Assembly (NCBI GenBank): GCA_963713725.1
Contig: CAVQMZ010000015.1
Coordinates: 269,027-333,026, forward strand
Direction: 5' to 3'
Length of the DNA stretch: 64,000 bases
DNA from: an uncultured Bacteroidota bacterium
GTDB taxonomy: Bacteria; Bacteroidota; Bacteroidia; Bacteroidales; GCA-2748055
Shown here: positions 4,888 to 19,192 of the stretch, piece by piece
Layout of the letters: the number at the start of each line of letters is the position of its first letter
Position numbering within the stretch: position 1 is the first letter of the stretch
The notes under the pieces: generated by a model
Told to the model about the DNA's origin: nothing
Database searches by the model: none
What the model saw: the letters and a program-made list of their open reading frames with translations, nothing else
Position numbers and translations under genes: made by a program

Positions 4888-4957
4888 GCCAAACTCCGTT
4901 TATCTTATTAAATTGTTGGCCATAAACCCCACAACATTGGTTTACCCCATTGTGTGC
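4881..4957 (+). other. attC0: short, degenerate attC-like or attI-like site at the head of the array
   Basis: atACTAAG...ccaaactcc...ggtttacccc-ATTGTGTGC. TTGTGTGC (4950-4957) is the reverse complement of GCACACAA at 5325-5332, which closes the first cassette. The core has A instead of G at its first base. Confidence 0.4.
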
Positions 4958-5010
4958 CATTAGGACCCAACTATTAGCATATCATTTGCATCTTGATTGA
5001 AAAATCTGTC

Positions 5011-5322
5011 ATGAAGAATCATCTAAACAAATTAGTCATCATTTTGCTGCTAATAGTTGGTTGTGCCAAGGATGGACAAAAGTGCAAATACCTTGGCCAA
5101 ATAGTTGGATATGACGGAACAGAATGTTCGTGTTGTCCTGGATGGCTCATAAAGGTAAATGGTGATTCAATAAAAATCCGTTTCCTCCCAAATGAAAGTG
5201 AGATCTGGGATATAGATCGAAGTAAAAGATATCCCATTGATATTGAAATAGATTATAAGAGCTTTCAAGGTGATTGTGATCACTCCTACAAAGAGTTAAT
5301 ATGTTATAAATTAATAGACTAA
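5011..5322 (+). CDS. Small Cys-rich lipoprotein, cassette-encoded, unknown function
   Basis: MKNHLNKLVIILLLIVGCAKD is a lipobox signal peptide. Nine further Cys residues follow. I recognise no family. Confidence 0.55.
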   Translation: MKNHLNKLVIILLLIVGCAKDGQKCKYLGQIVGYDGTECSCCPGWLIKVNGDSIKIRFLPNESEIWDIDRSKRYPIDIEIDYKSFQGDCDHSYKELICYKLID

Positions 5323-5324
5323 CA

Positions 5325-5461
5325 GCACACAACAATAGGTAAATTCCATTTGCCATGTCACACATTTTACACCCCAGAATCCAAACTCAGTTGAGAGCAA
5401 ATCACGTATGCAAAATGGTGTGCCATTTGGCAAACAGTTTATTTACCCGAACCGTTAGCAC
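5325..5461 (+). other. attC1
   Basis: GCACACAAC-aataggtaaattccatttgccatgtcac...tgccatttggcaaacagtttatttacccgaacc-GTTAGCAC. The two arms form an imperfect palindrome. Confidence 0.75.
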
Positions 5462-5492
5462 CATACTGGTTCTCCACTCTTGTATCCTTAAT

Positions 5493-5523
5493 TTTGATAT
5501 ATGTAACTTATAAGTTACCTTTG
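5493..5523 (+). promoter_or_regulatory. Cassette-internal promoter plus operator palindrome
   Basis: TTTG (5493-5496), 19 nt spacer, TACCTTTG (5516-5523), which fits the Bacteroides -33/-7 consensus. The perfect 16-bp palindrome GTAACTTATAAGTTAC (5503-5518) overlaps the -7 box. The ATG at 5528 is 4 nt downstream. Confidence 0.55.
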
Positions 5524-5527
5524 CCCT

Positions 5528-5872
5528 ATGGAGAAGGTTAGAGAGGTAATCGCCTATAAGCATTATTTCGAGTCGTTCTTGCGAAAGCAAAACACAAAAG
5601 TGCAAGACAAAATTTACAAAGTCATCGAGATTATTGAAACTTATGAGCGTGTCCCATCAACCTACCTCAAATATCTTAAAGGTACGGATGGTCTTTATGA
5701 GGCAAGAATAAAGCTTGGCTCAAATATCTGGAGAGTGTTTTGCTTTTTCGATGAAGGTAAATTGGTGATACTTTTAAATGGCTTTTCGAAGAAGTCACAG
5801 AAGACTCCTCAGAATGAGATAAATAAGGCTATTCGTTTAATGAAAATGTATTACGAAGAAAAAACAAAATAA
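5528..5872 (+). CDS. Type II toxin, RelE/ParE superfamily (phage Gp49-like / HigB-2-like)
   Basis: 114 aa. YKHYFESFL...LYEARIKLGSNIWRVFCFFDEGKLVILLNGFSKKSQKTPQNEI is characteristic of the Gp49/DUF891 toxin family. An XRE antitoxin gene follows after a 1-nt gap. Confidence 0.8.
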   Translation: MEKVREVIAYKHYFESFLRKQNTKVQDKIYKVIEIIETYERVPSTYLKYLKGTDGLYEARIKLGSNIWRVFCFFDEGKLVILLNGFSKKSQKTPQNEINKAIRLMKMYYEEKTK

Positions 5873-5873
5873 T

Positions 5874-6164
5874 ATGGAAACTAAAAGTTGGAAAGATATT
5901 AAGGATTCTGTCTATGGCAAACCAGGTACAGAAAGAAGAGATCAGTTGGACAGAGACCTTGAATCTGTAAAAATAGGGCTCCTTCTTCGCAAAGCCAGAG
6001 AAGAAAAGAACTTAACTCAAGCTCAATTGGCAGACCTCGTAGACAAGAAAAGGACATACATCTCAAGAGTGGAGAATAACGGTAGTAATCTTACTCTTAA
6101 AACGTTATATGACATAGTTGAAAAGGGCTTAGGCGGAAAGGTGAATATTTCAATTGATATTTAA
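5874..6164 (+). CDS. XRE-family helix-turn-helix antitoxin
   Basis: 96 aa. The HTH reads LRKAREEKNLTQAQLADLVDKKRTYISRVENN. It is adjacent to the toxin gene. Confidence 0.8.
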   Translation: METKSWKDIKDSVYGKPGTERRDQLDRDLESVKIGLLLRKAREEKNLTQAQLADLVDKKRTYISRVENNGSNLTLKTLYDIVEKGLGGKVNISIDI

Positions 6165-6170
6165 TAGTAC

Positions 6171-6422
6171 GTGCGCTAACATTGTGCAAACTCAATATTG
6201 GCTTTTCACGTGCTTTGCACTTGGAAAATCATATCTTTAAATGAGAGATTGTTAAGTCAATCTATAACAAACTGTACAAAACAATTGCAAACGCAAAGCC
6301 CGCGCCAAGTTCCGCTCCGGCCCTCATTGGGAGGAAGGCTGGATTAACAGTTTCGCAAGAAACATGGTTGGCAGGAATGAGGACCGGAGCGCCAACACAG
6401 AGTTTGCACCAACCGTTAGGCC
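6171..6422 (+). other. attC2 (unusually long, 252 bp)
   Basis: GTGCGCTAAC-attgtgcaaactc ... gagtttgcaccaacc-GTTAGGCC. It contains an inner second palindrome: cgctccggccctcatt / aatgaggaccggagcg. Confidence 0.65.
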
Positions 6423-6457
6423 TAATAGCGAAAAAACTATTCTAGCACGGATTTTGT

Positions 6458-6465
6458 TATATTTG
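6458..6465 (+). promoter_or_regulatory. Candidate -7 box TATATTTG for the ParE-type cassette
   Basis: TAnnTTTG match ending 19 nt upstream of the ATG at 6485. Confidence 0.4.
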
Positions 6466-6484
6466 ATACAGATACATTTCAGAA

Positions 6485-6667
6485 ATGATAACTAAGACTC
6501 AAATTATCGATTCCCTCAGCAATCTTCCAGAGAACTTGACTATTGATCAGGTAATTGATCATTTAGTTGTTGTCGAAAAAATCCAAAAAGGGCTAGAGGA
6601 TTCAGAAAACGGGCGTGTCTATAATAAGGATCAAGCTAAGGATAAGCTGAAGAAATGGCTGAAGTAA
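6485..6667 (+). CDS. Small antitoxin-like protein paired with a ParE/RelE toxin
   Basis: 60 aa. It overlaps the downstream toxin gene by 13 nt. The C-terminal GRVYNKDQAKDKLKKWLK is typical of Bacteroidota addiction-module antitoxins. Confidence 0.6.
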   Translation: MITKTQIIDSLSNLPENLTIDQVIDHLVVVEKIQKGLEDSENGRVYNKDQAKDKLKKWLK

Positions 6668-6972
6668 TCTGGACAGAATCTGCACTGGCTGATTTGGAAG
6701 ATATCGGCGAATACATTGCAAAAGATTCCGTTAGATATGCTGAGCTAATTGTTACGAAGCTTTTCGGATCACCTGATATTCTTGAATTGAATCCAAAAGC
6801 CGGGAAAATGGTTCCTGAGCTTCAGAATGAATCTATACGCCAAATAATTAGGGGAAGTTATCGAATTATATACCATTTAGTTGACGAATATAGAATTGAT
6901 ATTTTAACTGTTCACCGATCTTCACGATTGTTAAGTAATACATACGATTTCGAAGATATCGTCAATGAATAA
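6655..6972 (+). CDS. Type II toxin, RelE/ParE family
   Basis: 105 aa. IWTESALADLEDIGEYIAKDS...GSYRIIYHLVDEYRIDILTVHRSSR matches the ParE pattern. Confidence 0.8.
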   Translation: MAEVIWTESALADLEDIGEYIAKDSVRYAELIVTKLFGSPDILELNPKAGKMVPELQNESIRQIIRGSYRIIYHLVDEYRIDILTVHRSSRLLSNTYDFEDIVNE

Positions 6973-6981
6973 GTACTACAA

Positions 6982-7079
6982 GGCCTAACAATAGATATAC
7001 TCCATTTGCCTTGTCATGCTTTTTGAAACAAAAAGCCCGCCATTTGGCAAACGTTTAGTATATCCGGACCGTTAGACGC
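6982..7079 (+). other. attC3
   Basis: GGCCTAAC-aata-gatatactcc-atttgcc..gctttttgaaacaaaaagc..ggcaaacg-tttagtatatccggacc-GTTAGACGC. The arms pair by eye: gatatact/agtatatc and gcttttt/aaaaagc. Confidence 0.8.
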
Positions 7080-7117
7080 AAGGCAGTGAAATTTCTGCCA
7101 GTTTAAGCTTTATTTCT

Positions 7118-7125
7118 TACATTTG
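7118..7125 (+). promoter_or_regulatory. Candidate -7 box TACATTTG
   Basis: TAnnTTTG match ending 16 nt upstream of the ATG at 7142. Confidence 0.4.
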
Positions 7126-7141
7126 ATAAAAAGCATTTGAA

Positions 7142-7390
7142 ATGGATTCGTCGGAATTAAAACTGAAGATTTTCAGGGAAATAGATTCCTTAGACAGCGG
7201 GAAACTCCAGGAGGTTTACGGTTATATTCAGAATTTCCTTAGGGGTGAAAAAGATTTAAATGATTGGGACAAGCTTTCTACAGTTCAAAAAGAAGGCATT
7301 TATAATTCTATTATGGATCTTGATGCAGGCAAAGGTATTGCGAATGATGAGGTAATATCCAAATACCGGAAAAAGTATCCAAATGCCTAA
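7142..7390 (+). CDS. Antitoxin-like protein paired with a RelE/ParE toxin
   Basis: 82 aa. It overlaps the downstream toxin gene by 8 nt. The C-terminal LDAGKGIANDEVISKYRKKY is typical of antitoxins in this gene arrangement. Confidence 0.6.
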   Translation: MDSSELKLKIFREIDSLDSGKLQEVYGYIQNFLRGEKDLNDWDKLSTVQKEGIYNSIMDLDAGKGIANDEVISKYRKKYPNA

Positions 7391-7682
7391 GGGAATAATC
7401 TGGTCACCTGATTCAGAGAAAGACCTCGATAATATTCTTGCATACTTATCAAGTGGATGGAATCCAACAGTTTCATCAAGATTTCTTGATCTCATAGAAA
7501 AGGTGCTGGTTCAGATTTCAGTAAATCCAAGGCAATTTCCCATAATTCAGCAAAAATTAAAAATCCGTAAGTGTGTTCTCACCAAACACAATACTCTTTA
7601 CTATAGAATTAGCAGAAGCCATGTGGAATTGCTCAGAATCTATGACAACCGACAAGATCCAAAAAATTTAAAATTTAATTAG
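7383..7682 (+). CDS. Type II toxin, RelE/ParE family
   Basis: 99 aa. IIWSPDSEKDLDNILAYL...KCVLTKHNTLYYRISRSHVELLRIYDNRQDP. Confidence 0.75.
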   Translation: MPKGIIWSPDSEKDLDNILAYLSSGWNPTVSSRFLDLIEKVLVQISVNPRQFPIIQQKLKIRKCVLTKHNTLYYRISRSHVELLRIYDNRQDPKNLKFN

Positions 7683-7688
7683 TGCCCA

Positions 7689-7822
7689 GCGTCTAACACT
7701 ATGTAAATTCCATACTGCCTGTCACTCCTTTTGCAGACCTGGAACTAAGATGAAAGAGAAAATAAAACATAGCAAAAGATCGTGCAAGTTGTACGTTCAT
7801 TTACACTAACCGTTATTGCTGT
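7689..7822 (+). other. attC4
   Basis: GCGTCTAAC-actatgtaaattccatactgcctgtcac ... gttcatttacactaacc-GTTATTGCTGT. Confidence 0.7.
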
Positions 7823-7892
7823 CATAAATTGATTTCTTTCGTTTGACTTATATCACCTATCGGCGTAAATTGCAGTTAGCAACCTCATTTAT

Positions 7893-9683
7893 ATGTCCAA
7901 CAAACTATCCCAATTCTGGCAGGAGCTAAAACGACGTAAAGTTCTCCGTTCACTGGCCATCTACGCAGGTACTGCCTTTATCATCCTTGAAGCCTCCTCC
8001 ATCATTTTCCCACTTTGGGATTTTCCAGAATGGAGCATCAACCTGGTGCTTTGGCTTCTGATTCTGGGCGCATTTATCAATGTGATCATCGCCTGGATTT
8101 ATGACATCACCGCGGGAGGTATGCGAAGGACCAAGCCCATGGAAGAGGTCACCCCGGAAGAAAGAATTCCAGATTCCAGAGTATGGAAAGCTGCCACCTA
8201 TATCAGCCTGGTGGTGATTGTTGGTTTGATTGTTCTGAATATTGTGGGTGGAGGCAAACAGTTACGTGCAGGTGACATCGAGTCTTTGGTAATCCTTCCT
8301 TTTGAAAACTTTACCGGGGACGATCAGCTCGATAACATGGTTTCCAGCATGCACTCTTTGCTTTGTGGAGATATGGGCAGGATTAGTGGATTACGGGTGA
8401 TAGGAAAGACTTCCTCAAAAGTTTACAAGGACACTGATTTGTCTGCAAAAGACATAGCCAGGGAATTGAACGTGGATGCAGTGTTGGAGCCGACGATAAT
8501 GTGCCTGGGGGATAGTGTTTGCATGCAGTTCAGGTTGGTAAGCACTACCGGAGAGGAAGATCAAATCTGGGTTGGTGATTACAGGGAGGATAAAAGACAG
8601 ATCCTGAATCTGTTTAACAGGCTTACAAGGCAGGTCGCTGATGAAGTAATGATCGAATTAACTCCTGAAGAAGAGCGATTGCTTGCCAAATCAAGATCAG
8701 TTGATAGGGAAGCCTATGATGCCTATCTGAAAGCCCGCTATTACGTGAATGATTTCAGTAAGGAATCCTTATTCAAAGCACTGGATTATCTGAATAGTGC
8801 CATCGAGAAAGAACCAGACTGGGCACCCCTGTATGGAGGTCTGGCAGAGCTCTGGATGAATATACAACTGGGAGGGTACGAATCACCTTCTGTTGCTGCT
8901 CCTAAAATCTCCGAGAACCTCAATAAGGCCATTGAACTGGATCCGGATCTTGCACAAGTCCATTATCTCTCTGCTATGAACGCTCATTGGGTGGAATGGA
9001 ACTGGGAAAAGAGCGAAAAAGAATTCCTGAAGACCCTGGCCATAAATCCCAATGACTCATGGGCAAGATTGTTGTATTCACAGTTATTATTGATTCTGCA
9101 AAGGAATGATGAAGCATTGGCGCAAATAGAATTGGCAGCAGGCCTGGATCCTTTGAATCCTGCTGAGAAATTGTTGTATTCAGGAACACTGATACAGGCT
9201 GGCGATTTTGCAGCTGCCTTGTCTGTCGCAGAGGAACTTGTGGCCGATGATCCGATGGACATGAATGCGAAAGGGATGCTTGAAATAGCAGCTTACAACT
9301 TAGGCGAGTACGACGAAGTAATCAAATCTCTGAAACATAAACTGCCGTTTTCAGAAGATGTTTATGAGGGGATTGTGAGGATTTATAATGAATCCGGGAT
9401 CGTAGCGGCATATGAAGAATTAATGAAACATATGGAGAAGTATGCGGAAAATATTCCTATCGGGTGGGCTGGTATGGCCGGAGGGTACATCATTGCCAAT
9501 CAACCTGATAAGGCCATGGATTGGATTGAGAAAGGATTTGAAGCGCATGATCCGCAAATCACATATATAACCGCAACAGGGCGGTTTTATGAACAGTTGT
9601 TCGGGAATCCCAGATTTATTGCCATTTGTAAAAAAATGAACCTGCCTTTGCCGGAGGACAAAAGGAATCTTGGAATCATTTGA
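7893..9683 (+). CDS. Membrane-anchored TPR-repeat protein, cassette-encoded
   Basis: 596 aa. The N-terminal FWQELKRRKVLRSLAIYAGTAFIILE motif is followed by two TM segments, then an LVILPFENFTGDDQLD block (TolB-N-like), then a C-terminal half rich in TPR-like helices. Confidence 0.6.
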   Translation: MSNKLSQFWQELKRRKVLRSLAIYAGTAFIILEASSIIFPLWDFPEWSINLVLWLLILGAFINVIIAWIYDITAGGMRRTKPMEEVTPEERIPDSRVWKAATYISLVVIVGLIVLNIVGGGKQLRAGDIESLVILPFENFTGDDQLDNMVSSMHSLLCGDMGRISGLRVIGKTSSKVYKDTDLSAKDIARELNVDAVLEPTIMCLGDSVCMQFRLVSTTGEEDQIWVGDYREDKRQILNLFNRLTRQVADEVMIELTPEEERLLAKSRSVDREAYDAYLKARYYVNDFSKESLFKALDYLNSAIEKEPDWAPLYGGLAELWMNIQLGGYESPSVAAPKISENLNKAIELDPDLAQVHYLSAMNAHWVEWNWEKSEKEFLKTLAINPNDSWARLLYSQLLLILQRNDEALAQIELAAGLDPLNPAEKLLYSGTLIQAGDFAAALSVAEELVADDPMDMNAKGMLEIAAYNLGEYDEVIKSLKHKLPFSEDVYEGIVRIYNESGIVAAYEELMKHMEKYAENIPIGWAGMAGGYIIANQPDKAMDWIEKGFEAHDPQITYITATGRFYEQLFGNPRFIAICKKMNLPLPEDKRNLGII

Positions 9684-9846
9684 TCCAAATATCAGGCCGA
9701 GCAAGAAAGGATCAGGCGATGGTTGGAGAATGAGATGCTATAATTCAACATTTTCTTTGCTACAGATTGGATAAAAATAATCAAGGCCATTAGGAAAGTT
9801 GTTAAGGGATAATCATTTATTGTAAAATCTGATTATGGAATCTACA

Positions 9847-9982
9847 ACAGCTAACATTGAGTAAACTCCATTTGCCATGTCACACTTTTTGCACCCCAGA
9901 ATCACAGGTAACTGAGAAATCCTTAAATTGGCAAAAAGGTGTGCCATCTGGCAAACAGTAATTTACTCCGGCCGTTATGGGC
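9847..9982 (+). other. attC5
   Basis: ACAGCTAAC-attgagtaaactccatttgccatgtcac...ggcaaacagtaatttactccggcc-GTTATGGGC. The roughly 105-nt core is identical to attC6. Confidence 0.8.
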
Positions 9983-10156
9983 AAGCATTTGAGGGCAAAT
10001 AACTAATTCGAAAGACTTGTGAAATGTACTGAAATAACTAACCTTCAGATACAGAGAATACCAGTATGATTGGAATCCACTGCGATACAATCAGATAAAC
10101 CATGACCGTTTGATGATAAGGCTATAGTTTTTTAGAAAGTCTGCTTGTTTCAATAT

Positions 10157-10765
10157 CTAATAAGTAATCTCTCCTTCTCCAGTAAAACTCCACCGGCCTT
10201 CAGCATCAGTATATCCATACATAAGGAAATACCCGTTGGCATCCTGGTATTTTTCCGTACCTCCAATAATCGTGTAAGGATAAAAAAGATTGGGCGGATT
10301 CTCCAAATCGGGGTAAGGAATTCCCATCATCGTATGAATCTCACTTCCGCATGCAGCCGTTATAAATCCATAAACAGGGCTCATAAAAGTACCATCCCAG
10401 TCCATGCAGGCCAGGTTCTGAACTTTGAACAAACCGAGATGAGTGGCAATTCCGCTGCCCTCGATAACCATCTGTAATGGTGCCGGGATCCCGGCACAGT
10501 ATCCCGCATCTGGCACAATGCTAAATGTTCCGGTTGATCTTTTAAATTCAATGCTTTTTGTTAAAGCTTTCTTTCCTGATTTTGCGGATTTTAACGCAGC
10601 CTGCAGATCAAAATCATCTGCCTGGTATTGATTAAAGGCTCTAATGTATGGTTCAAGTACAAAATCGGTCTCTTCAACCATTCTTTCCCGGGTATCCAGA
10701 ATCTCATCCTGGCAGGAGGAAGATAACAGCATAATTCCGATAAGGAATAAAACATTCTTTTTCAT
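10157..10765 (-). CDS. Lipoprotein of unknown function
   Basis: 202 aa. MKKNVLFLIGIMLLSSSCQDE is a lipobox signal peptide. It lies downstream of the kinase gene on the same strand. Confidence 0.55.
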   Translation of the reverse strand: MKKNVLFLIGIMLLSSSCQDEILDTRERMVEETDFVLEPYIRAFNQYQADDFDLQAALKSAKSGKKALTKSIEFKRSTGTFSIVPDAGYCAGIPAPLQMVIEGSGIATHLGLFKVQNLACMDWDGTFMSPVYGFITAACGSEIHTMMGIPYPDLENPPNLFYPYTIIGGTEKYQDANGYFLMYGYTDAEGRWSFTGEGEITY

Positions 10766-10895
10766 GATCTGGTGGTTTTATATTTTTAAACAAACTGCCT
10801 GCAAGCAGACAAGTATCCCAATAAAGGTACTTCAGACATCCAAGCCCTGCTTTGCTCAGAATCTCAAATGTTTTGGAAATTGTCTCAATTACAGA

Positions 10896-13073
10896 TTATT
10901 GGACGGACTTCACTACTTCACTCGGTGAATAACCAAACTCTTCCCTGAATGTAGTACTGAAATGGGATAAATTTTTAAAACCCGAGGCCAGGGCAGCTTC
11001 CGTGACATTTGAAGCCCTGCTTTCCAGCATTACTTTTGCCTTGTACAGGCGATATGACCTGATGTAGCGGCCAATGGACATGTTTGTTAGTGCAGTGAAT
11101 TTGCGATAAAGCTGAGGACGGCTCATCCCGATGGAGGAGCAAATATCAGTCACACCGAAATTTTCCATATGCAGCTTTCCATCCAGGAGCTTGTTTATTT
11201 TGTCCAGGAAAATAAGTTCCTGCTTGTAGGCATTATTATCCTGATGCGTTTGCAGTGGAACTACCTTTAGCTTATCCTGCATTTTGCGCCTGGCAATAAG
11301 CAGGTTATTCAGCTTGAGGAATAGTTCTTTTTCATTGAAAGGTTTAACAAGGAAATGGTCCGCACCAATTTCAAGCCCCTTTATTTTTGATTGAAAATCA
11401 CCCCTGGCCGTAAGGACTACAACCGGAATATGATCTGTATGGATATCAGTCTTCAGTTGATCGAGCAATTCATATCCATCCATTTTCGGCATCATAATAT
11501 CGGTGAGGATAATATCGGGTATTATCTGAAGTGCCTTTTCAAATCCTTGTTCCCCGTTGGAAGCTATTTCGATTATGAATTGATTTTCAAGCACTGACAC
11601 CATATATTCCACTACGTCGTTATTATCATCAACAATCAGGAGAATAGGTTTATCGGGGGACATAACGGCCCTGATTTCCTGATCCTTACCCGGATCCCTG
11701 GTTGGCAGTACATGCTGAGAAGCAGAAGGATTCAGCAGTGAAATGCCATGATCTGCATCCTCCCGGGCTTCTCTGGTAGCCGGCAGACTCACTACGAATT
11801 CCGATCCCTCATTCACCTTGCTCTCAACCCGTATTTCTCCCTTCATCATATGTACCAGTTCCCTCGTAAGTGTAAGGCCGAGACCTGTACCAGGGGTCTC
11901 TTCGTCAATATCCGGAACTTGATAGAATCGTTCGAAGATGTATTTAACAGCTTCCGTTGGTATCCCTTTCCCTGTATCCCTGACATGAATATTCACTGTT
12001 TCCGTATCTCCTTGTGTTCTATTAAATACTTCAACATCTATATGACCACCCGGGGGAGTGAATTTAATGGCATTCGATACGAGGTTGCTAATGATGTGCA
12101 TCAGCTTATCGGGATCGTAGTCCATTTGCAGAGAAACATTGTCTGTTTTAAACTTCAATGTAATGTTCTGGCTTTCGGCAAGGCCATGGAAAGATCCGGT
12201 AAGGTATTTTATATACTTAACAATATCGCCCTGAATGAGATCCAGGTGCATGCTCCCGGCCTCAATCTTGCTGATATTCAGCATTTGGTTCACCAGCCTC
12301 AGAAGAATCTGGCTTTGCATTCTTATTTTGCCAGGTCCCTCTTTCAGCCATTTATCTTTGTGATTTTCCATCTGCTCAGCAATTCCTGAAATGACCGTGA
12401 GCGGAGTACGGAATTCGTGAGACACATTGGTGTAGAGCCGGGTTTTTGCTTCGTCAATTTTTCTTAAACTGTCGGCTTCTCGTTTTTCATAGCGGTTTTT
12501 ATCTTTCATAAATAGGATCACAAGGAACAGCATGCAGGCATTTATCCAGAGATTAAGTACGACGAAGAGAATGGTATTTGTCCTGTATGAAAAGTCTGAT
12601 GGTATTTCTAAATATGGTTGGAGAATACCCGTTAGAACTATGGTCGCACCGTACAAAAGGAAAATTCCAACTGTCCAGCGGATTTTTCCTGCCAGCACCG
12701 ATCCCATGGCACAGTTAATCCCTATAAAAACCAAACCATTGGATGTTTCGAGTCCGCCAAACTTCAACATGGCAAAAAATATCGCAATGATGAAGTAAGA
12801 GAACAAAATGTTCATGACCAGGTCGAAACGCCTCAACCTCCTGAAAAGAGGGAAAGCAACCGCATAGCCCATTAAGAAAGCAGGACCCGCCCACCAGGCC
12901 TGTAATACATCCAGAACAAGAAACAATATGGTTGAAAAGATAACTCCGATACAGGTTACAACCATCCATATCCAGGCCCAACGCTTACGAAGAAGTGCCT
13001 CTGACTCAAGCCTTGAATCTGCAAGGTACCGGTCGATCCACGCAAGGATCTCCTGTTTCGAATATAATTTCAT
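10896..13073 (-). CDS. Hybrid sensor histidine kinase / response regulator with C-terminal AraC-type HTH
   Basis: About six N-terminal TM helices, HisKA H-box SHEFRTPLT, HATPase N/G boxes (NAIKFTPPGG, DTGKGI, GTGLGLTL), receiver domain (LLIVDDNNDV...DIMMPKMDG...LTAR...KPF), and AraC HTH (SHFSTTFREEFGYSPSE). The start is taken at MKLYSK; the ORF extends to 13088. Confidence 0.85.
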   Translation of the reverse strand: MKLYSKQEILAWIDRYLADSRLESEALLRKRWAWIWMVVTCIGVIFSTILFLVLDVLQAWWAGPAFLMGYAVAFPLFRRLRRFDLVMNILFSYFIIAIFFAMLKFGGLETSNGLVFIGINCAMGSVLAGKIRWTVGIFLLYGATIVLTGILQPYLEIPSDFSYRTNTILFVVLNLWINACMLFLVILFMKDKNRYEKREADSLRKIDEAKTRLYTNVSHEFRTPLTVISGIAEQMENHKDKWLKEGPGKIRMQSQILLRLVNQMLNISKIEAGSMHLDLIQGDIVKYIKYLTGSFHGLAESQNITLKFKTDNVSLQMDYDPDKLMHIISNLVSNAIKFTPPGGHIDVEVFNRTQGDTETVNIHVRDTGKGIPTEAVKYIFERFYQVPDIDEETPGTGLGLTLTRELVHMMKGEIRVESKVNEGSEFVVSLPATREAREDADHGISLLNPSASQHVLPTRDPGKDQEIRAVMSPDKPILLIVDDNNDVVEYMVSVLENQFIIEIASNGEQGFEKALQIIPDIILTDIMMPKMDGYELLDQLKTDIHTDHIPVVVLTARGDFQSKIKGLEIGADHFLVKPFNEKELFLKLNNLLIARRKMQDKLKVVPLQTHQDNNAYKQELIFLDKINKLLDGKLHMENFGVTDICSSIGMSRPQLYRKFTALTNMSIGRYIRSYRLYKAKVMLESRASNVTEAALASGFKNLSHFSTTFREEFGYSPSEVVKSVQ

Positions 13074-13133
13074 TGCTGCCCCATACAAGTTACCATAAAT
13101 TATTCATTAATAAAACAATAGGGAAACATGCAT

Positions 13134-13269
13134 GCCCATAACATAGAGTAAATTCCATTTGCCATGTCACACTTTTTGCACCCCAGAATCACAGGTAACT
13201 GAGAAATCCTTAAATTGGCAAAAAGGTGTGCCATCTGGCAAACAGTAATTTACTCTAACCGTTATGAGC
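13134..13269 (+). other. attC6
   Basis: GCCCATAAC-atagagtaaattccatttgccatgtcac...ggcaaacagtaatttactctaacc-GTTATGAGC. Confidence 0.8.
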
Positions 13270-13296
13270 AATTCAAAAAAAAATGAACCATTCTGA

Positions 13297-14340
13297 ATGA
13301 ATATGACAAAAAAACAAATAAAACGAATTCTCAGAATAGTATTTATTATGGCAAGCATATCCTCCCTGTTCTTTGTACCATGGCTTTTGGTAAAGGCGTG
13401 GATACTTCCGCTACCGGATACGGTTCAGGAACAGTTAGATGAGGCCATTGGTCATGGATTTGACGGAATGATTGTTTATGTAGACCAAGCTGGTAAACCA
13501 CCTCAGTATTTTGCTTCCGGCTGGCACGATCGAGAATCCAAGATACCTGCCAAACCTCAAGCCCTATTTAAGATTGCCAGCATCAGCAAGCTATATGATG
13601 CTGTGGCTGTCACCAAATTGGTAAGTGATGGACGTCTTTCTTTGGATAAAACCATCGCCGATTATTTACCGGAGCTTGTAGGAAGAATTGAAAACGCTGA
13701 GAAAATTACCTTGAGGTTGATGATACAGCATAGAAGTGGCATTCCCAATTTTACGGACGCTCCGAATTTTTGGGCAGCTCCAACAGAGACCTATGAAGAA
13801 AGTCTTGCATTGATTCTGGACAAGCCGGCCAACTTTGAACCCGGTGAAGACTATGAATATTGTAATACAAATTATCTGTTAATCAATAAGATAATGGATG
13901 ATGCGCTAGGTTATGGGAACTTTCAATTCATTCAGGAAGAAATTCTAATGCCGCTAAATCTTAACAATACCTTCGGTTCGCTAAGTGAAGTGAATATAGA
14001 CGATGTGATGAGTGGCTATCATGTAGGACATCCCTTTGATTTAAAGGCAGACGAACATGGCATGTTAGCCACAGCAGAAGACGTGGGTACTTTCCTAAGG
14101 GCATTGAACGATGGATCATTGTTTGAACAGGGAGAACAGGAAATATATTCTTCCATTTATGAGTATGAACATGCAGGTTGGGTTCCGGGATACCAGAGTT
14201 TTGCAAAATATCACAAAGACCTTGATGCTGTTGTTATTGAGTTCTACAGCACAACCGATCCTAAACTGTACAATTGGAACTTGTCAGAAATCATAAATAA
14301 TAGAATTGTTAAAATACTGAAAAGGCAAAAAAGCTCATAA
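13297..14340 (+). CDS. Serine hydrolase, beta-lactamase/transpeptidase fold (class C-like), cassette-encoded
   Basis: 347 aa with an N-terminal TM/signal segment and an S-x-x-K motif (FKIASISKLYDAV). The stop codon overlaps the attC7 inverse core. Confidence 0.75.
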   Translation: MNMTKKQIKRILRIVFIMASISSLFFVPWLLVKAWILPLPDTVQEQLDEAIGHGFDGMIVYVDQAGKPPQYFASGWHDRESKIPAKPQALFKIASISKLYDAVAVTKLVSDGRLSLDKTIADYLPELVGRIENAEKITLRLMIQHRSGIPNFTDAPNFWAAPTETYEESLALILDKPANFEPGEDYEYCNTNYLLINKIMDDALGYGNFQFIQEEILMPLNLNNTFGSLSEVNIDDVMSGYHVGHPFDLKADEHGMLATAEDVGTFLRALNDGSLFEQGEQEIYSSIYEYEHAGWVPGYQSFAKYHKDLDAVVIEFYSTTDPKLYNWNLSEIINNRIVKILKRQKSS

Positions 14341-14466
14341 CACTAGGTAAACTCCATTTGCTATGTCACACATTTTGCACCACAATATCCAAACTCAACC
14401 AAGAGCATTACCGTATGCAAAATGGTGCGCCATTAGCAAACGTTAGTATACTCAAACCGTTATTGC
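14333..14466 (+). other. attC7 (its GTT core is interrupted by, or abuts, the group II intron)
   Basis: GCTCATAAC-actaggtaaactccatttgctatgtcac...gccattagcaaacgttagtatactcaaacc-GTTATTGC. It belongs to the same subfamily as attC1. Confidence 0.75.
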
Positions 14467-15114
14467 GACACGAAGTCGTATAAATGATAGTTTTACTAAG
14501 ATTCAGTTCTTTGATAAAACCTGCTGTTTCCCCAGCAGTACCCTACCGGGACAACTGATGTATGGTGCAGCCATTATTGGTTGAAGCTCCCTGGAAATTG
14601 TACCAAACGTTTGGGTCGAGTATCCTTAAAACGGGGCTGAAAACCGTGAGGTGGATAGTCCTCGGAGTCTCAAAGCCGATTTAGGGCATGGGTTTATGGG
14701 TATGGCTAAAGTAATTGAACACTCCGCAACTGCCGTGATCACGTAGGGAGCGAAAAAGAGAATGACACGCTCTTAACCAAAAGGTAGGCTGGCAAGTTAT
14801 AAGCGTTTAACGCAGCTTATACGGGAACGTAGCCCAGTCGGCAGACAGGATGAGCCTAACCTCATTATTTTGTCATTTATACGGAACGTGGAAGCCCGAC
14901 GCTCTCTCCCAACTACCTCGTGCAGGTAACAGGGATAAAACCGTAACCGCAAGGCATCGGGAAACGTCGGACAGAGAAGTTGGAACAAGCGAATGCTGCA
15001 TTGTAATGGTGCAGATAGCAGTTGAGATATCACTGCGGACGAAAGTTCTGCTGACCTCCAACCGGTGCTTTTTGGCAAGAAAACTTTATAGAACCTGTCA
15101 ATGGTAGAAAGCAA

Positions 15115-16639
15115 ATGAACGAGGATGTAAATCTTTCGTGTGCAATACCACACCACACTGATAACTGGCACAGCATTATCTGGCGTCAGGTTATCCAAAG
15201 GGTGCGCAGGCTGCAAAGGAGGATCGCCAAGGCTGTGAAAGAAGGTCGTTGGGGCAAAGCTAAAGCCCTGATGTACCTGGTATCCAAATCATTTTATGCT
15301 AAGTTGCTGGCCGTATTTAGAGTAAGCTCCAATAAGGGAAGTACTACTCCGGGAGTGGACAAGATCGTTTGGATAAACGACCATGCAAAACTCCAGGCAG
15401 CCAGAAGCCTCAAAGCAAGAGGCTATACTCCAAAGCCTCTTCGAAGGGTGTATATCCTGAAGAAGAATGGCAAGAAACGACCATTGAGCATACCATCAAT
15501 GCATGACAGGGCGATGCAAGCCCTGTATGCCATAGCGCTTGATCCTGTTGCTGAGACAACAGCTGACCCGAACTCTTATGGGTTCAGGGAGAAAAGGTCA
15601 TGTGCTGATGCTATCGCCCAATGCTTTTTGTCGTTGTGTAGGAAAACGTCATCTCAGTGGGTGTTTGAAGCAGATATTAAATCTTGCTTTGACCAAATCG
15701 ATCATGATTGGATAATGGAGAATATCCCATCAACAAAACCATCCTCAAAAAATGGTTGAAGTCGGGATACATCGAAAAAAACTCTGTTTCCAACTAAAAG
15801 AGGAACGCCACAGGGCGGTACAATTCCCCTACGATCATGAATATGGTTCTGGATGGTATGGAAATGCTATTAAGAAACACTTCCCTCGGTGGAAAGGACA
15901 AAAAGTAAACTTCATCCGATATGCGGATGACTTTGTGATCACTGCTTCCACATACGAAGCACTGAAATATGAAGTAATCCCTCTGGTGAAGGATTTTCTC
16001 TCTGTGAGAGGGCTCTCCCTCTCCAAAGATAAATCCAAAATCACCCATATCAACGATGGATTTGACTTTTTATCACAAAATATCCGAAAATACAAGGGTA
16101 AATTGTTGATACGTCCCTCCAGGGAGCCTATCCAGTCTTTCAAGGATAAGTTGAAAGACATACTCAGGAGAAACAGGGGAATCCCTGCCCATGGACTAAT
16201 CCGGCTACTTAACCCTGTTATCAGGGGGTGGTCGAATTACCATAAAGGGATATGTTCCAAACTCACCTTCTACAAGTTGGGGACTTTCATTTATTGGCAA
16301 TTAAAACGGTGGGCGAAATACCAGCACGGAAATAAGAACCGACGCTGGATACATAGGCGATACTTCTTAAACACACATTTTACTGACACCAGGACCTCTG
16401 ACAAGGGTAAAGACGTATATCGGCTTTATCGAATTGGTCATGTTCCTATAAGGTATCATGTGAAGATCAGAAGCCTTGCCAATCCCTACCTGCCGGTATA
16501 TGACAAGTACTTTTTCCAACGCAGAGCTTGTAGAGATCTCTTAGCAAAAGAATGTAAACAAATCACTACTTTTAGTGGTAAGGAAACCAACGTTAACAGC
16601 CGGGTGTCCCCGCATGGGGCACGCCTTAAAAGCGCTTGA
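15115..16639 (+). pseudogene. Group II intron reverse transcriptase/maturase, four frameshifts, no endonuclease domain evident
   Basis: RT blocks are present: RRVYILKKNGKKRPLSIPSMHDRAMQ, YGFREKRSCADA, FEADIKSCFDQIDHD, (frame changes) TPQGGTISPTIMNMVLDG, FIRYADDFVI. The maturase X block is LNPVIRGWSNYH. Frame changes occur near 15727, 15785, 15825 and 15868. Confidence 0.85.
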
Positions 16640-16696
16640 GCCATATGCGACGAAAGCCGCACGTAGGGTTCTTAGGGGGCGTAAGCTACCCGGTTT
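16638..16696 (+). ncRNA. Group II intron domains V and VI
   Basis: Domain V is 34 nt with the AGC triad and a GAAA tetraloop. Domain VI is GGGGGC-GTAA-GCT[A]CCC with a GNRA loop and a bulged A at 16688, the candidate branch point, 7-8 nt before 16695/16696. Confidence 0.7.
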
Positions 16697-16732
16697 GCTC
16701 ACATACTGGTTCTCCACTCTTGTAATCTCAAT

Positions 16733-16763
16733 TTTGATATATGTAACTTATAAGTTACCTTTG
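16733..16763 (+). promoter_or_regulatory. Second copy of the TA cassette promoter and operator
   Basis: TTTG, then 19 nt, then TACCTTTG, with the same 16-bp palindrome GTAACTTATAAGTTAC at 16743-16758. Confidence 0.55.
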
Positions 16764-16767
16764 TTCT

Positions 16768-17112
16768 ATGAAGAAGGTTAGAGAGGTAATCGCCTATAAG
16801 CATTATTTCGAGTCTTTCTTGCGAAAGCAAAATACAAAAGTGCAAGACAAGATTTACAAAGTCATCGAGATTATTGAAACTTATGAGCGTGTCCCATCAA
16901 CCTACCTCAAATATCTTAAAGGTACGGATGGTCTTTATGAGGCAAGAATAAAGCTTGGCTCAAATATCTGGAGAGTGTTTTGCTTTTTCGATGAAGGCAA
17001 ATTGGTGATTCTCTTAAATGGCTTTTCGAAGAAGTCACAGAAGACTCCTCAGAATGAGATAAATAAGGCTATTCGTTTAATGAAAATGTATTATGAAGAA
17101 AAAACAAAATAA
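16768..17112 (+). CDS. Type II toxin, Gp49-like RelE/ParE superfamily (second copy)
   Basis: The 114-aa product is identical to that of 5528-5872 except E2K. I counted seven synonymous nucleotide differences. Confidence 0.8.
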   Translation: MKKVREVIAYKHYFESFLRKQNTKVQDKIYKVIEIIETYERVPSTYLKYLKGTDGLYEARIKLGSNIWRVFCFFDEGKLVILLNGFSKKSQKTPQNEINKAIRLMKMYYEEKTK

Positions 17113-17113
17113 A

Positions 17114-17404
17114 ATGGAAACTAAAAGTTGGAAAGATATTAAGGATTCTGTCTATGGCAAACCAGGTACAGAAAGGAGAGATCAGTTGGACAGAGACCTT
17201 GAATCTGTAAAAATAGGGCTCCTTCTTCGAAAAGCCAGAGAAGAAAAGAACTTAACTCAAGCTCAATTGGCAGACCTCGTAGACAAGAAAAGGACATACA
17301 TCTCAAGAGTGGAGAATAACGGTAGTAATCTTACTCTTAAAACGTTATATGACATAGTTGAAAAGGGCTTAGGAGGAAAGGTGAATATTTCAATTGATAT
17401 TTAA
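17114..17404 (+). CDS. XRE-family antitoxin (second copy)
   Basis: The protein is identical to that of 5874-6164, with three synonymous differences. The start is taken at METKSW. Confidence 0.8.
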   Translation: METKSWKDIKDSVYGKPGTERRDQLDRDLESVKIGLLLRKAREEKNLTQAQLADLVDKKRTYISRVENNGSNLTLKTLYDIVEKGLGGKVNISIDI

Positions 17405-17410
17405 TAGTAC

Positions 17411-17503
17411 GTGCGCTGTGTAAATTCCATATTGCCTGTCACGCGGAAAAAAGCAAAAGTCGCACCAGGTGTACAGTATTTGCAATATACGTCGTTAGCA
17501 CAC
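17411..17503 (+). other. attC8 (short; the inverse core lacks AAC)
   Basis: GTGCGCT-gtgtaaattccatattgcctgtcacgcgg...gtatttgcaatatacgtc-GTTAGCACAC. Confidence 0.6.
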
Positions 17504-17524
17504 ATAACAAAAACCAGATGTAAC

Positions 17525-17570
17525 TTGACTCTCGTATTAATTGTACGTATATTTGTACTATATTATGTAC
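17525..17570 (+). promoter_or_regulatory. yefM-yoeB type promoter and operator
   Basis: TTG (17525-17527), 20 nt spacer, TATATTTG (17548-17555). Three TGTAC motifs lie at 17542, 17554 and 17566, exactly 12 bp apart. Confidence 0.5.
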
Positions 17571-17586
17571 GAAATAATTAAAACTA

Positions 17587-17841
17587 ATGATAACAGCATC
17601 AATATCTGATTTCCGGAAAGATATCAAGCGATATCTTGACAATGTGACTAAGAATTTTGAAACGCTAATTATCAATCGAGGGAAGGATAATGGCGTAGTT
17701 GTGATTTCCTTGGACGAATACAATTCATTAACTGCCACTCAACATGAGCTTTCTTCAAAAGCAAATGAGCAGAGATTAGATTCTGCCATTGAGAAACTTC
17801 AATCTGGCAGGTCTTTCGAGAAGAAAATTAACGAGGAATGA
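17587..17841 (+). CDS. yefM: Phd/YefM-family antitoxin
   Basis: 84 aa. ISDFRKDIKRYLDNVTKNFETLIINRGKDNGVVVISLDEYNSL. It overlaps the toxin gene by 4 nt (ATGA). Confidence 0.85.
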   Translation: MITASISDFRKDIKRYLDNVTKNFETLIINRGKDNGVVVISLDEYNSLTATQHELSSKANEQRLDSAIEKLQSGRSFEKKINEE

Positions 17842-18095
17842 AATTAATATTCGTTGACGAGTCTTGGGAGGATTATCTGTATTGGCAAAAGACCGATAAA
17901 AAGATGATGAAAAAGATCAACGAATTGATCAAGGACATCTCACGGAATCCATTTCACGGTATAGGCAAACCAGAGCCTCTTAAATTCAAATATAAAGGTT
18001 ATTGGTCTCGAAGAATAGATCAGGAACATCGACTTATCTATCGAGTCTCAGAAGATGAGATTTGGATTGCTAAATGCAGGCATCACTATGATTAA
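17838..18095 (+). CDS. yoeB: YoeB/Txe-family toxin
   Basis: 85 aa. SWEDYLYWQKTDKKMMKKINELIKDISRNPFHGIGKPEPLKFKYKGYWSRRIDQEHRLIYRV...CRHHY. Confidence 0.9.
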   Translation: MKLIFVDESWEDYLYWQKTDKKMMKKINELIKDISRNPFHGIGKPEPLKFKYKGYWSRRIDQEHRLIYRVSEDEIWIAKCRHHYD

Positions 18096-18104
18096 AAAAG
18101 TTAC

Positions 18105-18203
18105 GTGTGCTAATAATAGGTATATTCCATTTACTATGTCATGCTTTTTGTCACAAAAAGCATGACATTAGCGAACGTTAGCATACCCCGACCGTTATGC
18201 TGC
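18105..18203 (+). other. attC9
   Basis: GTGTGCTAAT-aataggtatattccatttactatgtcatgctttttgtcacaaaaagcatgacattagcgaacgttagcataccccgacc-GTTATGCTGC. Confidence 0.75.
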
Positions 18204-18209
18204 ATAAGG

Positions 18210-18240
18210 TTGACATTTATAAAAGTTATACTTACCTTTG
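18210..18240 (+). promoter_or_regulatory. higBA cassette promoter candidate
   Basis: TTG (18210-18212), 20 nt spacer, TACCTTTG (18233-18240). The ATG is at 18265. Confidence 0.45.
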
Positions 18241-18264
18241 ACGTTAGTATCGTAAAGCGTTATT

Positions 18265-18549
18265 ATGATTAGGTCGTTTGGATCGAAAGAAACCGAGAAA
18301 ATCTGGAATGGGATTAGATCTAACAAGATCCCCCCTGAAATTCAAAAGGCAGGTCGACGGAAGCTTAGAATGATCAACAATTCAATTGACATTAATGATC
18401 TAAGAATACCACCCTCTAACCGGCTTGAAAAGCTTAAAGGAGATCTTAAAAACTTTCATAGTGTAAGAATAAATGGTCAATGGAGGATCATATTTAAGTG
18501 GGAAGCCGGTCACGCACAAGAAGTTGAAATTGCTGATTATCATACATAA
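18265..18549 (+). CDS. higB: HigB-type toxin (plasmid maintenance system killer family)
   Basis: 94 aa. IRSFGSKETEKIWNG...LRMINNSIDINDLRIPPSNRLEKLKGDLKNFHSVRINGQWRIIFKW. Confidence 0.85.
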   Translation: MIRSFGSKETEKIWNGIRSNKIPPEIQKAGRRKLRMINNSIDINDLRIPPSNRLEKLKGDLKNFHSVRINGQWRIIFKWEAGHAQEVEIADYHT

Positions 18550-18555
18550 GTGAAA

Positions 18556-18855
18556 ATGGAAAAGCTAGATAACATTCATCCGGGTGAGGTGCTAAAAGAG
18601 GAATTCATGATACCACTGGATATTACGGCGTATCGCCTGTCTAAAGACCTGAGGATTCCTCAAACTCGTATTAGTGAGATCTTGAAAGGCCGCAGACGTA
18701 TTTCGGCTGATACAGCATTAAGATTGAGCAAGTACTTTGGAAATTCTGCCAAATTCTGGTTAGGACTTCAGGACGACTATGATCTTGAAGAAGAGCTTAC
18801 TGCAAGGAAACGAGAATTCCAGAAGATCAAAAGAAGAAAGGATTATGCAGCATAA
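18556..18855 (+). CDS. higA: HigA-type HTH antitoxin
   Basis: IHPGEVLKEEFMIPLDITAYRLSKDLRIPQTRISEILKGRRRISADTALRLSKYFGNSAKFWLGLQ. A GTG at 18550 is an alternative start. Confidence 0.85.
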   Translation: MEKLDNIHPGEVLKEEFMIPLDITAYRLSKDLRIPQTRISEILKGRRRISADTALRLSKYFGNSAKFWLGLQDDYDLEEELTARKREFQKIKRRKDYAA

Positions 18856-18947
18856 CAATGTACATACCCCATTCTGCTTGTCATGCCTTTCGCAGAAAAG
18901 CAAAAGATCGCGCCAATTGAACAGTGTATGTAAGGTAAGTTACAAAC
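18847..18947 (+). other. attC10
   Basis: GCAGCATAAC-aatgtacataccccattctgcttgtcatgcc...cagtgtatgtaaggtaa-GTTACAAAC. It overlaps the higA stop codon. Confidence 0.6.
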
Positions 18948-19192
18948 AATGCCTCTGCAACTAGGAAAAACTAAAGCTCATTCTGAAATGACTGTAGTAA
19001 ATTAAGATTTATATGACAATTAGTATTCAAGAAATATCTGAGAAAGATAAGTAGCAAAGAATAGGCAGAGCTAATTCTTGAAAACCTGGATTAGAAGAAG
19101 ATAATTATAACTATCTATTTCCTATTGAACTTATTCAAATTTTGCATTGTTTTGATTTAAGCAATCTACATTACATAAAATTGTAAGTAAAT

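Follow-up and report, generated by a model that had tools for sequence, protein, structure and literature searches.

The window analysed here is a 64,000-nucleotide (nt) stretch of contig CAVQMZ010000015.1 from an uncultured Bacteroidota bacterium, and it contains an array of gene cassettes in which the same toxin-antitoxin cassette occurs twice. We consider it likely that these two copies are alleles of one mobile cassette, and that copy 2 lost its native recombination site (attC) by deletion and was fused to the stump of a neighbour's attC. Copy 1 (5455 to 6415, plus strand) is a complete cassette, running from the TT that follows the G in the upstream R' core to the G of its own R' core, with boundaries set from at least 12 independent contexts. 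Copy 2 (16695 to 17417, plus strand) is a cassette body that ends at the deletion junction. Its near-identity to copy 1 begins at 16702, and its closest alleles elsewhere are those on L006 and L091-L094 (L numbers designate the loci and metagenome contigs fetched for comparison).

The copies were compared by a repeat search, MAFFT alignment and base-by-base comparison at an offset of 11240. Positions 5462 to 6177 and 16702 to 17417 form a gap-free direct repeat of 716 nt with 17 mismatches (97.6% identity), and the copies are spaced 11.2 kb apart within one array. A preliminary description of this DNA, made from the sequence alone, had matched 16703-17410 to 5461-6177; the repeat is real, with the copy-2 end placed 7 nt short and the start off by 1 nt. 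Five mismatches (5485, 5486, 5489, 5524 and 5525) fall in the 66-nt upstream noncoding part. The toxin gene holds one nonsynonymous change (5531, E2K) and seven synonymous ones, the antitoxin gene three, all synonymous, and a single mismatch (5873) lies between the genes. The earlier count of 10 synonymous changes and one nonsynonymous change, E2K, was therefore reproduced base by base. By the Nei-Gojobori method, with 127.5 synonymous and 502.5 nonsynonymous sites, the synonymous and nonsynonymous divergences (dS and dN) were 0.083 and 0.002, giving a ratio (omega) of 0.024. An excess of synonymous changes this strong (at least 10 of 11) has a binomial probability under neutrality of P = 1.0e-6, so the formal calculation agrees with the purifying selection first proposed.

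Near-identity stops at GTGCGCT (6171-6177 and 17411-17417), within the inverse core (R'') where the preliminary description had also placed the end of homology. In copy 1, GTGCGCT is followed by AAC and then by a palindromic attC of about 250 nt that reaches the R' core GTTAGGC (6415-6421). In copy 2, it is followed directly by GTGTAAATTCC, with no AAC, and an 86-nt stretch leads to the R' core GTTAGCA (17494-17500). As reported earlier, then, the two sites differ from the R'' box onward and copy 2 is without the AAC of its inverse core. The site of copy 1, attC2 (6171 to 6421, plus strand; R'' GTGCGCTAAC, AAC at 6178-6180), has the imperfect hairpin R''(RYYYAAC)-L''-L'-R'(GTTRRRY) expected at the 3' end of a cassette. 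Its bottom strand folds with a minimum free energy of -46.6 kcal/mol (z = -4.76; none of 200 shuffles was as stable). A consensus fold of five alleles contains 63 pairs, 9 of them with compensatory changes, and the R and L boxes are paired.

Exact-protein look-ups placed the same cassette on 15 other metagenome contigs. In all 12 of the other contexts that could be read across the 3' junction, the cassette ends in the long attC with an intact R''. The antitoxin gene is followed by the long attC on L001, L002, L004, L005 and L091-L095, and L003 and L006 reveal the start of the long attC with GCGCTAAC intact. The cassettes on L091, L092 and L093 have 0 differences over 650 nt, yet they have three different upstream and three different downstream neighbours, and the breaks all lie at G|TT of the R' core. 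This cassette has therefore moved recently, together with its long attC and between canonical integron boundaries. Because 12 contexts keep the long attC and identical cassettes stand among different neighbours, the long attC is native and the site of copy 2 is a secondary loss.

The allele of copy 2 is itself found with a normal site. The K2 residue and the upstream variants AATCTC and TGTTCTATGAAG recur on L006 and L091-L094, each with a normal R'', so the short site lacking AAC is a derived state peculiar to this genome. We also considered recombination at R'' on the opposite strand, with the attC belonging to the downstream gene. This arrangement was ruled out, since the 12 contexts keep the downstream attC, swap the upstream one and break at G|TT. 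The preliminary description had called it unusual for an attC not to stay with its cassette. That remark overstates the case: the 12 contexts obey the normal rule, and copy 2 is a damaged exception of a type already described. One further cassette copy, on L097 (493-532), has an abnormal 3' end in which GTGCAAAC is joined directly to an L'-like TGTTTATTCCGG. Cassette homologues with complementary R'/R'' ends are present in many Bacteroidota genomes, including cultured Flavobacteriia, and in Winogradskyella the array is longer than 16 kb.

At the end of copy 2, the AAC triplet and about 3 bases of the spacer are missing from the junction GCGCT|GTGTAAATT (17417 to 17418, plus strand). What follows, attC8 (17418 to 17500, plus strand; R' GTTAGCA at 17494-17500), is the body and R' of a different, attC4-type site, as aligned with attC4, attC10 and the attC sites of L012 and L092. 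The motif of the attC4 family, GCAAAAG.TCG.GC.AG.TG.AC, recurs in its 3' part. An internally deleted version of the long attC was ruled out as its source, since its 5' arm is closer to attC4 (about 86% similarity) than to the long attC (about 77% by manual count). Compared with its relatives, attC8 carries three lesions: the loss of AAC and about 3 spacer bases at the junction, the loss of the 5' half of the terminal CTTTTGC/GCAAAAG stem, and a 3' spacer longer by 3 nt. On its right, attC8 ends at a true cassette boundary, since the YefM/YoeB cassette that follows begins with TTAGCACACATAA, a start shared with L007 and L008.

The remnant also folds poorly. The bottom strand of attC8 has a minimum free energy of -9.5 kcal/mol (z = +0.26; 119 of 200 shuffles were as stable), and the AAC of its R' is unpaired. 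Whether attC8 still forms a recombinogenic hairpin had been raised as a check, and its fold proved no better than that of shuffled sequence. Within attC sites, universal conservation is limited to the AAC triplet; recombination occurs there, in the R box that forms by pairing of R' with R'' (PMC5027507). As the AAC of R'' is gone and that of R' is unpaired, attC8 should be inactive as a recombination site. Copy 2 is thus a cassette remnant without an attC of its own rather than a free-standing cassette, and GTGCGCT alone is left of its native site, as in cassettes with a fused or truncated attC.

The divergence between the copies bears on how both came to lie in one array. Copy 1 differs from the allele of L001/L002 at 3 positions and copy 2 from that of L006 at 5, compared with 17 between the copies, which currently fall in separate clades. 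Ten of the 17 differences are polymorphisms common to other environmental alleles in other array contexts. The private substitutions, 4 in copy 2 and 3 in copy 1, are all at third codon positions. Since each copy is closer to environmental alleles than to the other copy and the polymorphisms are shared, the divergence belongs to the mobile cassette population and not to this locus. Most likely, two alleles were captured separately, with no old duplication at this locus. The purifying selection is genuine, but it characterises the cassette lineage and is not evidence of upkeep after a local duplication.

These counts also weigh on the alternative favoured in the preliminary description, namely that an old duplication occurred inside the array, that both copies were kept as functional modules, and that one attC was later exchanged by recombination at R''. 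Two copies 11.2 kb apart in one array, with the dS and omega given above, would fit such a history, and tandem duplication of a whole cassette is seen in the related array of L012, which has the window's attC family (6302-6601 and 7114-7413, 100% identical, spacing 812 nt). We nevertheless regard it as unlikely. Besides the allele distances and shared polymorphisms, the occurrence of the copy-2 allele elsewhere with a normal attC speaks against it, and an in-register exchange would have kept the AAC. Of the earlier account, the intactness of both copies and the dominance of synonymous changes stand, and the old duplication does not. Likewise, an attC "exchanged or partly deleted at R''" is half right: a partial deletion fits the comparative data, but an exchange is an overstatement given that the long attC is kept in 12 contexts.

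For separately captured alleles followed by deletion, a single illegitimate, out-of-register event would account for the end of copy 2. Such a deletion would run from just after the GCGCT of the copy-2 R'' to just before the L'' arm of the downstream attC, and would remove the native attC in full together with the AAC of R'', any intervening cassette, and the R'' and spacer of the following attC. As a likely route, neighbouring attC sites that form hairpins could have been joined by slippage or through microhomology. The two-gene module would be untouched by the event, and purifying selection on it would persist.

The position of the break, exactly at the AAC of R'', could instead suggest an aberrant crossover by the recombinase, in which top-strand recombination or cleavage at AAC swapped the attC body and faulty repair removed the triplet. 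The top-strand AAC cleavage triplet does lie in R'' (PMC5027507), and other anomalies occur close to R'': in the YoeB cassette of L010, GTGTGCTAACAATAGG is followed by a different attC body, and the R'' of L096 reads GCGCTAC (513-668). A site-specific crossover, however, would be expected in register, with the AAC left intact. The junction has also lost about 3 spacer bases, and two more lesions lie inside attC8. For the in-register swap on L010, homologous recombination in the 5' part that the attC sites share, conserved over about 25 nt, is an equally good explanation. L096 had appeared to be a second, independent case of exchange with AAC loss; this was ruled out, since its attC is homologous to that of L004 with 1-2 nt lost in R'', which makes it point decay in a 5%-diverged allele. 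With the local recombinase a pseudogene in addition, we find an enzymatic origin of the junction quite improbable.

Could the junction have arisen during assembly, through a chimeric join or through collapse of the repeat where copy 2 ends? Assemblers have difficulty with a 716-nt repeat at 97.6% identity set among many similar attC sites, and the junction is absent from the other data sets scanned. Even so, an artefact is very unlikely. The 17 differing sites and unique flanks indicate that the copies were not collapsed, and the junction partners share at most 1-2 nt, unlike a k-mer chimera. The right-hand side enters the bona fide cassette boundary G|TTAGCACACATAA that is common to L007 and L008, and the window's proteins are recorded on a contig longer than 1 Mb. 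Scarcely credible is a gene conversion in which a distant homologue with its own short attC was overwritten in its coding part by a clade-B allele: L012 does have a homologue with a 91% identical toxin protein and a short attC of the attC8/attC4 type, but its DNA is only about 78% identical (139-143 differences per 650 nt), the tract would need to end exactly at both cassette ends, mosaic tracts and residual L012-type polymorphisms are absent from copy 2, and the missing AAC and other attC8 lesions would go unexplained.

Several observations count against separate capture followed by deletion. The junction of attC8 was seen in this assembly only. Exact 24-mer and 21-mer scans of metagenome contigs for an intact attC8 parent gave 0 matches, and a BLAST search with attC8 over fetched loci totalling about 1 Mb returned only 24-nt, family-level matches (attC4 and the L012 attC). 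The content of the deletion and the number of steps are therefore reconstructed rather than read from a parent. Weak folding is also seen in attC8's relatives of the attC4 type (z = -0.5 and -1.2), so a poor fold is not decisive by itself, and the missing AAC is the main argument for inactivity. In addition, duplication in situ followed by shuffling of arrays in relatives is conceivable, and a functional recombinase may exist elsewhere in the genome.

If copy 2 did lose its site by deletion, it would no longer be excisable alone. At best, it could move as a composite of the intron described below, the toxin-antitoxin pair and the YefM/YoeB cassette, by way of attC7 and attC9. Such movement would be doubtful, because attC9 has AAT in place of AAC and the local recombinase is dead. 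The array would then be frozen and decaying in place, and damage to attC sites would not be purged because the neighbouring recombinase is a pseudogene. A toxin-antitoxin cassette has a promoter of its own, and its excision is penalised (PMC13108822). For this reason, intact genes can stand beside a ruined site, and the module, an addiction module with its own promoter, would stay under purifying selection.

By protein family and gene order, the module is a predicted HigBA-like type II toxin-antitoxin pair. The toxin gene of copy 1 (5528 to 5872, plus strand) encodes a Gp49 or HigB/RelE-like protein of 114 amino acids (aa), the E2 allele, that matches Pfam PF05973 with 77 bits (cut-off 23.9; E = 9.7e-22). 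Its match to the NCBIfam RelE/ParE model TIGR02683 is 29 bits, under the cut-off of 62.85. The closest toxin matches, 91-92% identical, are in metagenome-assembled genomes of Bacteroidales/Bacteroidetes. The antitoxin gene of copy 1 (5874 to 6164, plus strand) follows after 1 nt and encodes an XRE-type helix-turn-helix (HTH) protein of 96 aa (Pfam HTH_3, E = 2.6e-13). The toxin gene of copy 2 (16768 to 17112, plus strand), identified by translation, carries the K2 allele, and exactly the same protein is encoded on L006.

The antitoxin gene of copy 2 (17093 to 17404, plus strand) can be read in two ways, as 103 aa from the ATG at 17093 or as 96 aa from the ATG at 17114. A C-to-T change at 17094, silent for the toxin, and an intergenic T-to-A change at 17113 create the in-frame ATG at 17093 (region 17093-17116, compared with 5853-5876 in copy 1). 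With this upstream ATG, gene callers give a 103-aa antitoxin with the extra residues MKKKQNK, which overlaps the toxin gene by 20 nt; this form was also called on 8 other contigs. The antitoxins of the two copies can therefore be called identical for the 96-aa reading only. A 103-aa form is also possible in many homologues.

Upstream of each toxin gene lies a candidate promoter and operator, through which the pair may regulate its own expression. In copy 1 (5493 to 5523, plus strand), it consists of a -33 element TTTG (5493-5496), the palindrome GTAACTTATAAGTTAC (5503-5518) and a -7 element TAccTTTG (5516-5523). The same elements are found in copy 2 (16733 to 16763, plus strand), with the palindrome GTAACTTATAAGTTAC at 16743-16758, and the earlier claim that the 16-bp palindrome is the same in both copies is correct. 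This perfect palindrome overlaps the TTTG-N19-TAnnTTTG motif. Among 80 homologue loci from other Bacteroidota, 68 have the palindrome and 59 the TTTG-N19-TAnnTTTG arrangement. The spacing and sequence of the two elements, TTTG-N19-TAccTTTG, fit what we take to be the Bacteroidetes promoter consensus.

The array extends from about 5300 to 18950 and contains ten attC-like sites (5327 to 18945) in one orientation, which start ..YTAACA and end ..CCGTTRnnn; it is thus a cassette array bounded by attC sites. Its cassettes encode two ParE-type toxin-antitoxin pairs, YefM/YoeB, HigB/HigA, a tetratricopeptide repeat protein, a beta-lactamase-fold protein and others. The gene content of the window includes a hybrid two-component regulator, a sulfatase and a GH43 protein; this content, the promoter type and the closest relatives are all indicative of Bacteroidota. 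The cassette upstream of copy 1 ends in attC1 (5327 to 5460, plus strand; R' core GTTAGCA at 5454-5460), which belongs to the repeat families D2/D3 and has a bottom-strand z of -2.1. Upstream of copy 2 lies attC7 (14337 to 14462, plus strand), recognised by sequence and fold, the R' of which starts at G14459.

Downstream of copy 2, the YefM/YoeB cassette with attC9 (17495 to 18199, plus strand) was identified by Pfam matches. In the R'' of attC9, AAT (18112-18114) takes the place of the expected AAC: the window has GCTAAT at 18109-18114, compared with GCTAAC in L007, L008 and L010. Copy 2 included, two toxin-antitoxin cassettes of the array have a damaged R'' triplet. An exact-protein look-up with YefM returned no record, and YoeB was used instead. 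Identical YoeB proteins are encoded on L009 (455) and L010 (395), and there and in the window (18096-18200) the sequences diverge after GTGTGCTAACAAT(AGG) past the yoeB stop codon. L010 continues with an attC of another sub-family and L009 with sequence that is not an attC. This suggests that, within this pool of cassettes, the conserved 5' part of the attC is a frequent site of recombination or deletion.

A group II intron (14463 to 16694, plus strand; 5' UUGCG ... GU 3') was inserted 3 nt after the crossover G of attC7, after the GTTA of the R' core. Its strand is that of the cassette genes. We set the boundaries by analogy with the intron UHB.I2 (PMC7923331) and from the end of the Rfam model at 16694. 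Rfam models RF02012 and RF00029 place domains D1-D4 at 14520-14686 and D5/D6 at 16636-16694. The reverse-transcriptase open reading frame (ORF) is split by a frameshift into 15115-15759 and 15752-16639, and Pfam matches to RVT_N, RVT_1 and GIIM are spread over both parts. Together, the RNA domains and the reverse-transcriptase/maturase ORFs confirm that the attC upstream of copy 2 received an intron, as first described. The 3' exon starts with TTGC, and so does the intron, which leaves the sequence of the attC7 R' core, GTTATTG, unchanged. With U in place of G at its first position and a frameshifted ORF, this intron copy is predicted to be inactive. No further copies of the intron were found in the window or in the fetched loci.

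Other repeats occur in the window. Two attC sites (9852-9984 and 13139-13271) are 95% identical over 133 nt and flank a gene on the opposite strand for a 730-aa hybrid two-component regulator (10896-13088); this pair could reflect a duplicated attC or an inverted or inserted segment. Outside the array, three copies of a 92-nt repeat at 42759-43792, 71-73% identical to the reference copy and 468-474 nt apart, are probably repeated domains within one gene. Rfam identifies a tRNA gene at 1185-1259 (69.8 bits), roughly 2.8 kb upstream of the recombinase pseudogene.

This pseudogene (4056 to 4884, plus strand) encodes an Xer-like tyrosine recombinase. Alignment with intact homologues revealed a single frameshift, near 4600, and the translations have no in-frame start codon upstream. 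Directly after its stop codon is a candidate attI (4885 to 4960, plus strand), a conserved block that is degenerate in the window and was aligned with L098, L099, L100 and L001. About 60 nt of this block are conserved after the recombinase stop in the window, L098, L099 and L100, with identity ending at CTATG|TT, and on L001/L002 the toxin-antitoxin cassette is inserted exactly at that point. The recombinase is on the same strand as the cassette array and lies immediately before it in the window (4056-4960), L012 (5188-6006), L023 (7021-7830), L038 (7021-7815), L098 (10001-11020), L099 (10001-10920) and L100 (306-1480). The gene at 2477-3724 on the minus strand was ruled out as an integrase, as it encodes an esterase/PA14 protein.

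The window's recombinase scored 228.9 against the NCBIfam XerA-type model (cut-off 220) and 219, in two stretches, against the integron-integrase model TIGR02249, under the cut-off of 265. The family aligns to VchIntIA over 12-186/14-188 and 200-274/245-319. It lacks the IntI additional domain, having 13 residues where VchIntIA (IntI4) has 56, and the array recombinase of the window is not an IntI-type integrase. The family comprises 7743 matches at E <= 1e-40, and its best structural relative by sequence is the archaeal XerA. For Bacteroidetes, the IntegronFinder 2.0 survey lists a single integron, in Salinibacter, and otherwise In0 elements only (PMC9024848). We found no description of Bacteroidota arrays with such a recombinase in the literature searched; one may exist outside it.

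With considerable doubt, we put forward the idea that these arrays form an unrecognised, Bacteroidota-wide integron-like class. It would be characterised by an Xer/XerA-like enzyme of about 278 aa without the additional domain, encoded on the same strand as the array, by a candidate attI after its stop codon and by G|TT cassettes, and its toxin-antitoxin cassettes would be especially prone to attC loss. Within such a class, attC loss as in copy 2, attC9 and L096 may be neutral or even favoured, because excising an addiction module is penalised. If this enzyme drives cassette movement, a new mechanism would have to be sought to explain how attC is recognised in the absence of the additional domain, and current integron detection would miss the elements of a whole phylum.

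Among known systems, the closest parallels to copy 2 are the fused cassettes of mobile integrons, in which an attC has been lost or truncated (PMC4670013). As far as the summary in PMC12901181 goes, these form category i of Partridge 2009. As in copy 2, the attC of the first cassette is partly or wholly deleted, R''-proximal bases are left, and the cassette is permanently linked to the next. Unlike those cases, copy 2 is a toxin-antitoxin cassette in a chromosomal Bacteroidota array, no ORFs are fused, and the deletion ends inside the second attC, which leaves a hybrid-looking site.

The toxin-antitoxin cassettes of the Vibrio cholerae superintegron are likewise type II pairs with their own promoters, present in several copies or paralogues per array (PMC13108822). 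Such cassettes are thought to stabilise the arrays of sedentary integrons, where their excision is penalised (PMC13108822). The window differs in host phylum and recombinase type; its toxin-antitoxin genes are co-oriented with the cassette genes, and the family is known in arrays from sequence alone. HigB/HigA systems share the order of toxin gene first and HTH antitoxin gene second, the small proteins and a palindromic candidate operator in the promoter. In contrast to them, the toxin here matches Pfam Gp49, with only a weak match to the RelE/ParE model, and its activity is predicted.

The intron also has known counterparts. The target of group IIC-attC introns is TTGT/T at R'' on the bottom strand, which orients them against the cassette genes (PMC3001079). 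In contrast, the window intron lies on the top strand inside the R' core, with a frameshifted ORF, and does not belong to that group. It resembles the group IIB1 intron UHB.I2 (PMC7923331), which has the same UUGCG..GU boundaries, a position just after an attC and the orientation of the cassette genes.

Copy 2 is a further instance of a known form of cassette decay, and multiple toxin-antitoxin cassettes in chromosomal arrays are also known. It nonetheless offers a clean natural example of array decay, in which an addiction module keeps its genes and loses its site, so that a mobile cassette becomes a fixed chromosomal locus. The example is illustrative and unsurprising; the wider interest lies in the comparative data. 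One toxin-antitoxin cassette circulates with its attC through the arrays of many Bacteroidota, and these arrays adjoin a recombinase without the additional domain that defines the integrases of known integrons.

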